55,688 bases of DNA from a virus (IMGVR_UViG_3300033127_000028:1-55688); one strand, 5' to 3'. Shown: positions 43,373 through 54,721, counted from the first letter of the stretch. Program-made: numbers and translations. Notes: generated by a model not told the origin, from the letters alone.

Positions 43373-43933
43373 ATGTCATTAACAGTAATTACAGGGAGCA
43401 TGTTTGCAGGTAAATCTAAGAAACTAATTGAGCTAGGTAAGGAGCAGGAAGGTAAGGCAGTTCTTTTCATCAAGCCTGCTGTAGATAACAGGTACTCTGT
43501 GGATGAGATTGTTACTCATGATGGAGAGTCAGTTAGAGCTATGGTTATTGACTCTGATACACAGCTTAACATTGCTGATTTTTTCACCATCTTAGGAGCT
43601 AATGTGGTGCTAATTGATGAGGCACAATTTTTCACTACTGACCTTATTGACATGGTTGCATCTATGCTTGAAGAAGAAGATAAAAAAGTGTATGTAGCAG
43701 GTCTTAATTATGACTATAAAGGTAAGGAATTTGAGACTACAGCTAAGCTGATTGAGCTTGCTGATGAAGTGATTGAGCTTACTGCTGAGTGTGCTGATTG
43801 TAAAGGTGAGGCTACTTTAACTGCTAAGACATCAGGCTCAGATAAGAGGGTAGAGCTGGGCAGCAAAGACATCTACAAGCCTGTGTGTGTTAAATGCTTC
43901 AAACATGTAAAGGGGGTGGGATTCAATGAGTAA
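43373..43933 (+). CDS. tdk: Thymidine kinase
   Basis: GSMFAGKSKKLIE P-loop, VLIDEAQFF, and C-terminal Cys pairs CADC...CVKC. Confidence 0.85.
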   Translation: MSLTVITGSMFAGKSKKLIELGKEQEGKAVLFIKPAVDNRYSVDEIVTHDGESVRAMVIDSDTQLNIADFFTILGANVVLIDEAQFFTTDLIDMVASMLEEEDKKVYVAGLNYDYKGKEFETTAKLIELADEVIELTAECADCKGEATLTAKTSGSDKRVELGSKDIYKPVCVKCFKHVKGVGFNE

Positions 43934-44201
43934 GACTATCAAACAATCTCAAAAACATGTATCAAAAGCAGTAGGTGTGTTCTCTCAGGCAGTTAATGAG
44001 GTAGAGAAAGCACAGGCTGTCCTGCAAGAAGGTATCAAGGCTGATACTATGGCAGCTACTTCTAAGCTGAATCAGATTAAGAAGATTGAGAAAGAGATTG
44101 CTGACATTGGAAAGTCCAAAGAGGCTAAAGGTATTGAATATAAGAAAAATGCTGAGCTACTTACTAACCTCAAGCAGTTTACATCAGGTAAAGAGCTGTG
44201 A
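43926..44201 (+). CDS. Hypothetical coiled-coil protein (91 aa)
   Basis: Open frame overlapping the tdk stop. Confidence 0.45.
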   Translation: MSKTIKQSQKHVSKAVGVFSQAVNEVEKAQAVLQEGIKADTMAATSKLNQIKKIEKEIADIGKSKEAKGIEYKKNAELLTNLKQFTSGKEL

Positions 44202-44226
44202 TTTATGTGAGGGGAGAGGGAGGAGA

Positions 44227-44880
44227 ATGTCAGTGATTGTAGTTGGTGGCATGATAGGACTGGGAAAGTCCAGTACAGCAAAGATTTTAGGTGAGGCTCT
44301 AGGAAGTGAGGTCTTTTATGAGAATGTAGATGACAATGAAATTTTACCATTGTTTTATACAGCCTCAGAGGAAGAAGCGCAGGAGAAAAGGTATCCATTC
44401 CTATTGCAGCTAGAATTTTTACAAAGCAGGTTTAAGGACATTAAAAAAGCATTACAGCACAGACAGAATGTACTTGACAGATCAATCTATGAAGATTGGT
44501 ACTTTGCTAAAGTTAACAAGGATTTAGGTAGAATCTCAGACACTGAGTTTAGCATCTATGAAAAGCTCCTTTATAACATGATGGAGGAATTAGATGAGCT
44601 TCCTAAGAAAGCACCTGACTTAATGGTGTATTTAAGAGCCTCTTTTGAAACAGTACTTTATAGAATTGGACTGAGGGGTAGAGATTTTGAGCAGGATGCA
44701 GGTCTAGTAGATTACTACAGAACACTGTGGGAGGGTTATGATAAGTGGCTGTTTAACCACTATGATGCCTCAGAAGTGATTGTAATTGATATGGACAAGA
44801 TGGATGTAGTCAATAATCCTGAGGATGCTCAATCAGTAGTAACTCAGGTGAAAAATAAACTTATTGAAATGGGGATTTAG
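44227..44880 (+). CDS. Deoxynucleoside kinase (dCK/dGK/dAK family)
   Basis: VVGGMIGLGKSS P-loop, FYENVDDN, FLLQLEFL and LDRSIYED motifs. ATG 44227 after GGGAGGAG; the track ORF starts earlier. Confidence 0.75.
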   Translation: MSVIVVGGMIGLGKSSTAKILGEALGSEVFYENVDDNEILPLFYTASEEEAQEKRYPFLLQLEFLQSRFKDIKKALQHRQNVLDRSIYEDWYFAKVNKDLGRISDTEFSIYEKLLYNMMEELDELPKKAPDLMVYLRASFETVLYRIGLRGRDFEQDAGLVDYYRTLWEGYDKWLFNHYDASEVIVIDMDKMDVVNNPEDAQSVVTQVKNKLIEMGI

Positions 44881-44883
44881 TAA

Positions 44884-45192
44884 ATGGCAGCTTTGGACTT
44901 TTTTAACTTGTTACAGCTTATTGGTGGATTTATTTTGGCAGTGGGGTACATTCCACAGATTATTAAAATCATTAGAACAAAATCAGTGAAAGACTTTAGC
45001 TTGTTGTATCTAGGTGGTATCTTCACAGGTATTGTATTCATGGAGATTTATGCAGTGTATATGTTCTTTGTAATGCACACAGCAGGAGCTTTCTTTGCCA
45101 CTAATACAGTGTCCTTCTTGCTATCAGGTATTGAGTTTGCTCTAGTATTATTCTTCTCAGCTAAGTATAAACAGGGCAAGGTGGTAAAGTAA
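44884..45192 (+). CDS. SemiSWEET-like PQ-loop membrane protein (3 TM)
   Basis: GYIPQIIKIIRTKSVKDFSLLYL parallels the SemiSWEET TM1 PQ motif. 102 aa. Confidence 0.55.
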   Translation: MAALDFFNLLQLIGGFILAVGYIPQIIKIIRTKSVKDFSLLYLGGIFTGIVFMEIYAVYMFFVMHTAGAFFATNTVSFLLSGIEFALVLFFSAKYKQGKVVK

Positions 45193-45413
45193 TGGACACA
45201 GAGACAAAGGTTGGCTTAGGGGTTGGCTGCTTATTACTTGGTTTGATTATTGTGGCTATCTTAGTAAACTTCTTACTATTCCCTTTTTTCCTTATGTTAG
45301 TGCTTGGAGCACTGGGCTACAAAGTGTCTTATCTCCTATGTATTGCAATTTGGGTACTGTTATCAGTTATCTTAAAGAAGTTGTTTCCAAAAAGGACAAT
45401 AACAGTAGAATAG
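45192..45413 (+). CDS. Small membrane protein (2 TM)
   Basis: Hydrophobic 73 aa, with an ATG overlapping the preceding stop (TAATG). Confidence 0.5.
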   Translation: MDTETKVGLGVGCLLLGLIIVAILVNFLLFPFFLMLVLGALGYKVSYLLCIAIWVLLSVILKKLFPKRTITVE

Positions 45414-45449
45414 TGTCACAGTTTAAGAAACCTCTCTAACTAAGGAGTG
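45414..45449 (+). promoter_or_regulatory. Class II phage promoter-like element
   Basis: TGTCACA-N15-CTAACTAAGGAGTG. Confidence 0.55.
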
Positions 45450-45472
45450 AATCAGTTAGGGAGGTTTTTTCT

Positions 45473-53133: not shown

Positions 53134-53589
53134 GTGGAATACTTGGAATCATTACAAGAAAATATGTCAGGATTAACACAGTACAGTACTGCTGAGGAGT
53201 TAAGAGCCAGTTTCCCTAAGAATGTCACAATGATGGTTAAGGGCTGCTTTAAAGCTTTGAAAGATGAGCAGTTAAATGATGAGGTATTTTTAGGTGCTTT
53301 CATTGGTAATGTGGTAGGGATTAATGTTGTGGGTACTAAGAAAGATGCAAGCTCCACAGGGATTATGGCTATTTCAAATAAAAGACTTATCTTTATTGGG
53401 AAATTAGCATGGATGACAAAAGTAGAGGCAATTGCATGGAAAAACTTTGACTCTTACTCAGCCCAAAAAGGCATGATGTTTGGTGAGATAACTGTCATGA
53501 GCAGAAGTGGTCACAGACTTAAAGTCACTTCTATAGATAAAAAAGTTTGGACAGAAGGTAAACAGATTTTAGATGCATTAGTGAATTAA
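53134..53589 (+). CDS. Bacterial PH-domain (YokE-like) protein
   Basis: ISNKRLIFIGK...GEITVMSRSGHRLKVTSIDKK pattern. Confidence 0.35.
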   Translation: MEYLESLQENMSGLTQYSTAEELRASFPKNVTMMVKGCFKALKDEQLNDEVFLGAFIGNVVGINVVGTKKDASSTGIMAISNKRLIFIGKLAWMTKVEAIAWKNFDSYSAQKGMMFGEITVMSRSGHRLKVTSIDKKVWTEGKQILDALVN

Positions 53590-53738
53590 TAAGGGGCGGG
53601 TGGCTATCAATTGGCTGCCCTTCCTTTATCTGTAGCATAAGGGGGGAAATTTAGAGTTGATTTAAGCATAAAGGTGTATGAGTCAAAGTTGTTGAGGTTT
53701 TTTTTAGTGAGTTTGAATAGAAATTAATGCCTACATAA

Positions 53739-53761
53739 GAGAGCCTTTGGCTCTTTTTTTT
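53739..53761 (+). terminator. Rho-independent terminator
   Basis: AGAGCC-ttt-GGCTCT followed by T8. Confidence 0.7.
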
Positions 53762-53780
53762 ATGCTTTTTTTTTAATGGC

Positions 53781-53816
53781 TGTCACACTTTTTCTGAACC
53801 ATCTAATTAAGGAGTG
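53781..53816 (+). promoter_or_regulatory. Class II phage promoter-like element (variant)
   Basis: TGTCACA-N15-CTAATTAAGGAGTG. Confidence 0.5.
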
Positions 53817-53856
53817 TAAGCAAGAATAACAAAAACATTTTAGGAGGTCATTTTAA

Positions 53857-54213
53857 ATGACAAAAACTTACACACACTTATCTAGCACAGAATTAGTATC
53901 AGAAATCACTACAGGCATTAAAAACTCTATCACTATTGTAAAGCAGCTTGAGGAAATGGCTGAGCAGCATCAAGTGGTATCAGAAAAAGAGGTAGTGGAG
54001 CAAGCAGGAGCAGCTATGATGTTTATTCTTGAAATGACCTTATCTAAAGTTAATGATTTGTTAGGAGAGGTTGATAATAGACAAAACTCTGAAATGATCA
54101 TAGAAGCACTTTTAGCTAAGTTAGATGAGTTTATGAAGGTTGATGGTCAGTACTTTGTGTCTGCACTACTTCTTACAGGTACTATCAGCTTGGGTGAATT
54201 ATTCAGTGTCTAA
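53857..54213 (+). CDS. Hypothetical protein (118 aa)
   Basis: AGGAGG RBS. Confidence 0.55.
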   Translation: MTKTYTHLSSTELVSEITTGIKNSITIVKQLEEMAEQHQVVSEKEVVEQAGAAMMFILEMTLSKVNDLLGEVDNRQNSEMIIEALLAKLDEFMKVDGQYFVSALLLTGTISLGELFSV

Positions 54214-54235
54214 GGTTAGAGAGGAAAGACCTCAG

Positions 54236-54721
54236 GTGGCAGCTAATCAAGGTAAGATAACAACTAAAGAAGGTAAGGGGCTGAGGGTTTACCTAGCCTC
54301 CCCTTTCTTCTCTGAGGAGCAGATTGCAGAAGTTGAAAGACTTGAGCAGGCTCTTATCAGTAATCCACATGTGTCAGAGGTATTCTCTCCTATGAGGAAT
54401 CAGATTGACTCTTTAGAGTTTGGCTCACTTGAGTGGAGACAAGCTATCTTTAAAAATGATGTCACTCATATTGACTGGGCTGATGTTGTAGTAGCAGTGC
54501 ATGACTACTTTGATGATAAAACTGATGCAGGTACAGCATGGGAAATGGGCTACACTTTTGCAAAAGGTAAGCCAGTGTTTCTGCTGCAAGAGAAAGAAGG
54601 AGTACCAGTTAACTTGATGCTAAGTGAGAGTATTGTGGCTTACTTTGTAAAAGCTGATGAGGTTGCTGAGTATGACTTCACTAACCCTCAGAACATTAGA
54701 TTTTATGGGGAGGTATTCTAA
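54236..54721 (+). CDS. Nucleoside 2-deoxyribosyltransferase
   Basis: VYLASPFFSEEQ, VFSP, the D...D and GTAWEMGY..GKPV motifs of the NDT family. GTG 54236 after GAGAGGAAAG; the track ORF starts at 54140. Confidence 0.65.
   Translation: MAANQGKITTKEGKGLRVYLASPFFSEEQIAEVERLEQALISNPHVSEVFSPMRNQIDSLEFGSLEWRQAIFKNDVTHIDWADVVVAVHDYFDDKTDAGTAWEMGYTFAKGKPVFLLQEKEGVPVNLMLSESIVAYFVKADEVAEYDFTNPQNIRFYGEVF

Follow-up and report, generated by a model that had tools for sequence, protein, structure and literature searches.

How does a phage supply its own DNA polymerase when it encodes a set of deoxynucleoside salvage enzymes and none of the usual enzymes of de novo synthesis? This question is raised by a virus genome from IMG/VR (IMGVR_UViG_3300033127_000028:1-55688), in which positions 43,373 to 54,721 hold genes for a thymidine kinase (TK), a deoxynucleoside kinase (dNK), a deoxynucleoside monophosphate (dNMP) kinase and a nucleoside 2-deoxyribosyltransferase (NDT), together with a family A DNA polymerase (PolA). 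The 55,688-bp record, hereafter called the window, is the whole virus record; it has direct terminal repeats and is rated 100% complete. Auxiliary nucleotide genes of phages are mostly discussed as de novo enzymes, such as ribonucleotide reductase (RNR) and ThyA; the temperate Bacillus/Clostridium family described here keeps salvage only. We consider it probable that these genes together provide a canonical route of import and salvage, which takes the place of de novo synthesis of deoxynucleoside triphosphates (dNTPs) in phage replication. This reading is carried by what the genes encode, by their intact catalytic motifs and their operon structure, by the lack of de novo genes, by conservation within the family and by the displacement of one transporter by another; substrates, transport direction and expression timing are inferred.

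Salvage enzymes in the window and its relatives

An initial annotation of the window had assigned the four salvage enzymes and a phage-encoded PolA, and profile matches confirm all of these assignments. TK (43373..43933, + strand), of the type II, bacterial/human TK1-like class, matches PF00265 (E 7e-42) over its full length (2-176 of 176 profile positions), and its translation contains the P-loop GSMFAGKS, the Mg-binding DEAQFF and two CxxC zinc knuckles (C-A-D-C and C-V-K-C). dNK (44227..44880, +) belongs to the dCK/dGK/dAK family (PF01712, E 7e-40); its best solved relative is the dAK of Mycoplasma mycoides (2JAQ/2JAS, E 1e-20), to which it can be aligned with the P-loop G-x-G-K-S, the L-D-R-S motif and the Arg-rich lid R-I-G-L-R-G-R, and no equivalog was matched in an NCBIfam search. 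The dNMP kinase (50324..50881, +) falls into the T4 gp1-like family, with a PF21448 match (E 2e-12) that covers only the C-terminal half of the profile and a phrog_139 match (E 2e-40) that covers residues 1-181; a sequence search for a solved relative found none. PolA (45473..47833, +) combines a polymerase domain (PF00476, E 7e-93) with a 3'-5' exonuclease domain (PF01612, E 2e-20) and makes up the replisome of the window together with DnaB and a primase.

Terminators at 53737 and 54934 enclose NDT (54236..54721, +, with a GTG start; PF05014, E 2e-23; phrog_7995, E 3e-47) as a unit of its own. Among solved enzymes it is closest to the NDT of Bacillus psychrosaccharolyticus (BpNDT, 6EVS; E 2e-34), which reportedly belongs to type II and carries out transfer between purines and pyrimidines (PMC6270756). 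In an alignment with 6EVS, 1S2D and 1F8X, the Tyr of V-Y-L-A-S and the N-D, D-x-G, W-E-M-G-Y and N-L-M motifs are all kept, and with them the catalytic Glu nucleophile (within W-E-M-G-Y) as well as the active-site Tyr, two Asp and Asn of the L. leichmannii enzyme.

The initial annotation had also reported no RNR, thymidylate synthase, dCMP deaminase or dUTPase. Six-frame searches of the window with hidden Markov models agree, giving no match to the RNR large subunit, ThyA, ThyX, dCMP/cytidine deaminase or trimeric dUTPase, and no further de novo enzyme was revealed by Pfam scans of all 75 open reading frames (ORFs) of at least 45 amino acids in the window.

We then compared a family set of nine complete or near-complete genomes, comprising the window (G000), the IMG/VR genomes G001-G003 and G005-G008, and pCPC216_2, a 55-kb linear plasmid of Clostridium perfringens. 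RNR and ThyA are also absent from G001-G003. When core genes were defined by clustering the ORFs of the nine genomes, TK, dNK and the dNMP kinase were found in all nine, as were PolA, DnaB, primase, RuvC and the structural genes; NDT is accessory (6/9). Salvage in the absence of de novo enzymes is thus a family-wide trait, and this part of the initial reading stands. The most conserved protein of the family is dNK, with a mean identity of 69% to distant kin, compared with 56% for DnaB, 52% for terminase and portal, 44% for PolA and 43% for TK; it is therefore more conserved than terminase or helicase, and a transporter gene is always adjacent to it. The dNK of pCPC216_2 (L018:3793-4422; NZ_CP075975.1 42831-43625) is 66% identical to that of the window. 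Its gene falls in a gap of the gene table of the plasmid collection.

One core gene was considered as a hidden RNR gene and rejected. It encodes o167, an acidic protein of 167 amino acids (49147-49650, +) that is present in 9/9 family genomes and has no family assignment; a weak NCBIfam match to RNR-beta (E 3e-4) was obtained, but the comparison with a real NrdF gave only E 46.

The transcription unit and its predicted importer

The genes from TK to PolA lie in the order TK-orf91-dNK-SemiSWEET-2TM-PolA, with intergenic gaps of at most 60 nt. A terminator-like hairpin with an 11-pair stem and a following T-run (43265..43292, +) stands after RuvC as the upstream boundary, and a second one (47901..47924, +) closes the series. 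Because of these flanking hairpins and the short gaps, TK to PolA is one transcription unit. A LexA-type box, GAAC-N4-GTTC (38706..38717, +), heads the replication/nucleotide module; the genome has 2 matches to this pattern versus 0.41 expected.

Directly behind dNK, the unit encodes a SemiSWEET of 102 amino acids (44884..45192, +; PF04193, E 1e-9), a PQ-loop protein with three transmembrane helices that we predict to be a (deoxy)nucleoside importer. Its AlphaFold2 model (pLDDT 87.5) has three helices, and in a fold search of the PDB the top 14 matches were all bacterial SemiSWEETs (TM-score 0.68-0.85), with TySemiSWEET (4RNG), EcSemiSWEET (4X5M) and LbSemiSWEET (4QNC) at probability 1.00; PnuC was not among the top 50. 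The protein shares with these three the three-helix fold (root-mean-square deviation ~2.3 A), the PQ motif and the pocket Asn (Asn74); both the motif and this Asn are retained in its family.

The prediction of its substrate comes from the genomic slot that the gene occupies. SemiSWEET is carried by G000-G003 and pCPC216_2. G005-G008 carry instead a concentrative nucleoside transporter of the NupC/CNT type (PF01773, PF07670 and PF07662, E 1e-43 to 1e-52), so that no genome among the nine has both or neither. The NupC/CNT protein has 389 amino acids in G005, G006 and G008, where its gene lies near dNK (after dNK, or in G008 after dNK-NDT). It consists of two adjacent ORFs directly after dNK in G007 (L056:10861-12044, -), one with the N-terminal and Gate domains and the other with the C-terminal domain; the split may reflect a frameshift or a sequencing error, or the carrier may genuinely come in two pieces. 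Moreover, Enterococcus phage 9183 has the order NDT, dNK (dGK) and a PnuC-like transporter, with TK present and no RNR found. Three unrelated carrier families (SemiSWEET, NupC/CNT and PnuC-like) thus share one syntenic slot by dNK. Since one of these families is an established nucleoside carrier, and since each family genome has exactly one of SemiSWEET and NupC, the SemiSWEET is probably a (deoxy)nucleoside importer.

Two small ORFs complete the unit. A peptide of 73 amino acids with about two transmembrane helices (45192..45413, +; phrog_4743, E 5e-5) has a start that overlaps the SemiSWEET stop, and a small transmembrane ORF also follows the transporter in pCPC216_2, G005 and G008; it is possibly a partner of SemiSWEET. 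The coiled-coil-like orf91 (43926..44201, +; 91 amino acids) overlaps the TK stop and is co-transcribed; it has no Pfam or PHROG family and is kept in close kin only.

In the proposed route, deoxynucleosides would enter through SemiSWEET, perhaps with the help of the adjoining two-helix peptide, and NDT would swap bases on deoxyribose to convert an available deoxynucleoside into those in short supply. TK would phosphorylate dT and dU, and the single dNK would phosphorylate dA, dG and dC. The dNMP kinase would then make deoxynucleoside diphosphates, also from dNMPs released from host DNA, and host nucleoside-diphosphate kinase would complete the dNTPs for use by the phage PolA. Replication could in this way become independent of host RNR, for example in non-growing or SOS-induced cells. 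If this is true, such phages could replicate with host RNR switched off, and a SemiSWEET of 102 amino acids that carries deoxynucleosides would be a new substrate class for the fold.

Several points weigh against this reading. In sugar-transporting SemiSWEETs, a pocket Trp and Asn pair plays a role. The Trp/Asn pair of the sugar type is not preserved here: Met53 occupies the Trp column and is followed by Glu54, which is near-invariant in 27 homologues, so the lack of the pocket Trp of characterised SemiSWEETs leaves the substrate a prediction. When IMG/VR loci and plasmid records were sampled for the surroundings of distant SemiSWEET homologues, homologous genes with no nucleoside genes nearby were found on a 359-kb plasmid of B. 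thuringiensis, on an Aneurinibacillus megaplasmid and in L009; the linkage of SemiSWEET and kinase holds inside this phage family and is not universal. The nine genomes are related, which means that the complementarity count of SemiSWEET and NupC overstates independence. In addition, NDT and the transporter are accessory and hence not essential to the core route, the enzyme activities are predicted from sequence comparison, and, as regards the substrates of dNK, coverage of all four bases is assumed.

The L009 phage (G004) has a SemiSWEET that is 69% identical to that of the window. It has no dNK or TK but possesses RNR and ThyA, and it follows the opposite nucleotide strategy. In this phage, a NAMPT-like gene also comes after a Prs-like one (L009:12552-15050); the two form a pair of the NAD-reconstitution type.

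CpG avoidance and alternative explanations

The extreme avoidance of CG and GGCC noted in the initial annotation is real: the window contains 32 CpG sites (rho 0.015-0.02), 0 GGCC sites versus ~77 expected, and it lacks 40 of the 64 six-base palindromes. Sites for AluI (445), Sau3AI/MboI (113), RsaI (190) and NlaIII (199) do occur. Thirteen of the 32 residual CpGs are located in the leftmost 20% of the window (1-11000, the lysogeny/accessory arm), and 28 of the 32 occur in GCG or CGC context. CpG content varies widely within the family, from 0 sites in 53-55 kb (G005 and pCPC216_2) and 1 site (G006) up to a rho of 1.59 (G003). Every member avoids palindromes, but which 4- and 6-mers are affected differs from one to the next. 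For example, G002 lacks only CGCG and GCGC, G007 lacks CCGG, CGCG and GCGC, and G008 and pCPC216_2 lack GATC; CTGCAG, GAGCTC, GCATGC and GGGCCC are absent from all relatives. This relative-specific loss of palindromes suggests selection by restriction enzymes on cleavable DNA.

The CpG-rich G003 also has no GCGC and 2 GGCC only, although CpG is over-represented in it. A C5 cytosine DNA methyltransferase is encoded between dNK and SemiSWEET in this genome (L048:52-1152, -, corresponding to G003 20052-21152; PF00145, E 1e-82), which may be an alternative to site avoidance.

A further gene bears on the question of whether the nucleotides might come from host DNA. The ORF at 8383-9180 (+; 265 amino acids) is a nuclease-like candidate with a weak PD-(D/E)XK-like fold, and it is the only gene that tracks CpG depletion: all five CpG-free genomes have it, as does G008 (rho 0.5), whereas G002, G003 and G007 (rho 0.78-1.59) lack it. 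Four further loci bearing the gene have a rho of 0.006-0.17 in phage DNA, and a scan of genome contigs for the gene returned one locus. Each of the 11 loci found with a CpG rho of 0.5 or less carries the gene, and 10 of these are below 0.2. Another candidate correlate, the GIY-YIG gene (52418-52792), seemed limited to CpG-free kin and was rejected when it proved absent from the other CpG-free lineages.

On this basis, a phage nuclease might shred host DNA while the phage, lacking the CpG-containing target, is spared and the kinases reuse the products, with the dNMP kinase taking them directly and TK and dNK after dephosphorylation. A solitary CpG-targeting nuclease with self-immunity by site loss would account for the absence of CpG and would provide the dNMP kinase with substrate. 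We nevertheless regard such recycling of host DNA as unlikely. In its favor, the 8383-9180 protein has invariant residues (E113, D136, D142, H155, K170 and E171) that include conserved acidic and Lys positions, its model is confident (pLDDT 90), and its C-terminal domain resembles, weakly, only PD-(D/E)XK nucleases, namely Bax1, PspGI, EcoRII, BsaWI and Ecl18kI (Z 4.4-5.2). Its neighbour clusters in the Atlas partly carry RE_TaqI or RE_MjaI, the window has no methyltransferase, and a LexA-type box lies upstream of the gene block that holds the ORF. However, the fold scores do not reach the range in which a chance match is excluded, Foldseek gave no match to the model below E 1e-3, and the RE_TaqI label could not be confirmed, as Pfam shows no restriction-enzyme family in 20 homologues at E up to 1. 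The correlation with CpG comes from a small, phylogenetically confounded sample, a TaqI-like 4-bp site would not account for the loss of every CpG, and a few HCGD sites are still present. Moreover, the genes that act at the deoxynucleoside level (TK, dNK, NDT and the importer) would be superfluous for the recycling of dNMPs. A broader version, in which the family lives by scavenging, with SemiSWEET re-purposed as an importer interchangeable with NupC and, in the CpG-free members, a solitary nuclease attacking host DNA that contains CpG, appears similarly doubtful. The analysis gives no support to a link between the salvage kit and the near-total loss of CpG; the candidate nuclease gene is offered for the latter puzzle.

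There is only a slim chance that the kit serves counter-defence by refilling dNTP pools drained by nucleotide-depletion defences of the host. In that case, dG freed by a dGTPase would be re-phosphorylated by dNK, and the products of a dCTP deaminase would be rebalanced via NDT, TK and dNK. The steps of the kit could match the products of such defences, and the conservation of dNK far above the replisome genes would be in line with this role. However, no defence-linked context was seen around the genes, ordinary supply explains the route equally well, and the presence of import genes (SemiSWEET or CNT) argues for a supply from outside the cell more than for internal recycling.

The initial annotation had further raised the idea that NDT and broad kinases could bring a chosen or non-canonical base into the dNTP pool, and that modified virion DNA might be linked to the avoidance of CpG and GGCC. 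Some precedents exist. NDT is annotated in Bacillus phage SP-15, which has a hypermodified genome, and dNMP kinases of the T4 gp1 type can take modified dNMPs. In a 2025 preprint, some phage NDTs are associated with genomes that contain 2,6-diaminopurine (10.1101/2025.10.22.683976); like the window, these phages have a PF05014 member alongside a family A polymerase, but the association relies on PurZ and DatZ/dUTPase-type genes, none of which is present in the window. Six-frame searches of the window gave no match to PurZ (PF00709), and its ORFs contain no HD, MazG or dUTPase family in Pfam scans, so the dATP-removing partner of the dZ pathway is missing as well. As for the enzymes typical of hypermodified-pyrimidine phages (T4/SPO1 type), no match was obtained in the window to a ThyA-type hydroxymethylase or to a dCTPase/dUTPase/dTTPase exclusion enzyme (PF00303 and PF00692), no DNA methyltransferase, including C5 methylases, is encoded there, and no glycosyltransferase family was found among its ORFs, apart from a sub-threshold hint at 9654-10157 (E 0.003).

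The distribution of the genes also speaks against the link with CpG. TK, dNK and the dNMP kinase are core in CpG-free and CpG-rich kin alike (9/9 genomes, rho 0 to 1.59); NDT is absent from the CpG-free G005, G006 and pCPC216_2, which are complete or near-complete, and present in G002, G003, G007 and G008 (rho 0.5-1.6). The avoidance of different palindromes in each relative suggests DNA that can be cut, since blanket modification would make avoidance pointless. In an integrated relative in the chromosome of Bacillus sp. NPDC077027 (L070:1-20747), which has CpG-normal host DNA on one flank, a sharp CpG cliff lies at the integrase end, where rho drops from ~0.65-0.81 in the first 3 kb (host) to 0.06-0.30 within the prophage; low CpG is thus written into sequence that the host itself copies. 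The NDT is, in addition, nearest to an ordinary type II enzyme. A modified base is very improbable, and this part of the initial suggestion is not supported. The fallback given there, a plain booster of dNTP supply, is the better reading.

Related systems, host and lifestyle

The enzymes themselves are ordinary, and islands of NDT, dNK and a transporter are already annotated in Enterococcus phages. VPE25, VFW, 9183, nattely, vipetofem and Planchet share NDT (42-47% amino acid identity) and dNK (39-42%) with the window, and in them, too, a membrane transporter comes right behind the kinase, TK is encoded at another place and RNR is lacking. Unlike the window, they have a PnuC-like transporter, LOG-family and NrdH genes, a ThyA-family gene, and a different backbone of 86 kb. 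Lactobacilli salvage deoxynucleosides by NDT/PDT together with dAK/dGK/dCK and TK. The two pathways are alike in that NDT redistributes bases and kinases trap deoxynucleosides, and the NDT of the window agrees with the L. leichmannii and L. helveticus enzymes in its catalytic residues; the pathway of lactobacilli is, however, cellular housekeeping, whereas that of the window is phage-borne and comes with its own PolA, dNMP kinase and predicted importer. T4 (Tk and the gp1 dNMP kinase) and T5 (dNMP kinase) have enzymes of matching Pfam/PHROG families, but T4 also has RNR, thymidylate synthase, dCMP hydroxymethylase and dCTPase, and the window lacks all four.

What is new is that a whole family has a salvage-only core, that its dNK is exceptionally conserved and that SemiSWEET and NupC replace each other one for one. 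The Bacillus plasmid-prophages G005-G008 belong to the same family and use the equivalent slot beside the highly conserved dNK, but their importer comes from an established nucleoside-transport family, whereas the window has the 102-amino-acid SemiSWEET. Compared with sugar SemiSWEETs, this protein differs in the replacement of the pocket Trp and in a context of nucleoside salvage rather than sugar metabolism. A tblastn search of the deposited phage collection with SemiSWEET gave no match, and no account of phage SemiSWEETs or of phage-borne bacterial nucleoside importers was found in a literature search.

The window encodes a large serine recombinase, a Rap-type regulator, a resolvase, siphovirus structural genes and an amidase/LysM endolysin. 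Close homologues of its NDT occur in the chromosomes of Bacillus safensis (96%) and B. subtilis (81%). Because of these homologues and the chromosomally integrated relative, the virus can be identified as a temperate phage of the B. pumilus/subtilis groups. The region has no DNA-level relatives in the deposited phage collection, and the best PolA matches among deposited phages, in Clostridium tyrobutyricum phages, are not close (48% amino acid identity). A HicB-like antitoxin domain (PF15919, E 5e-8) is encoded at 2037-2321 (+) in the lysogeny arm. Records of about 55-60 kb that bear SemiSWEET are filed as plasmids in B. licheniformis, B. altitudinis and C. perfringens, and many assembly contigs of 54-63 kb from B. 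subtilis, the B. cereus group and Priestia also carry it, which suggests that many members of the family live as plasmid-prophages.

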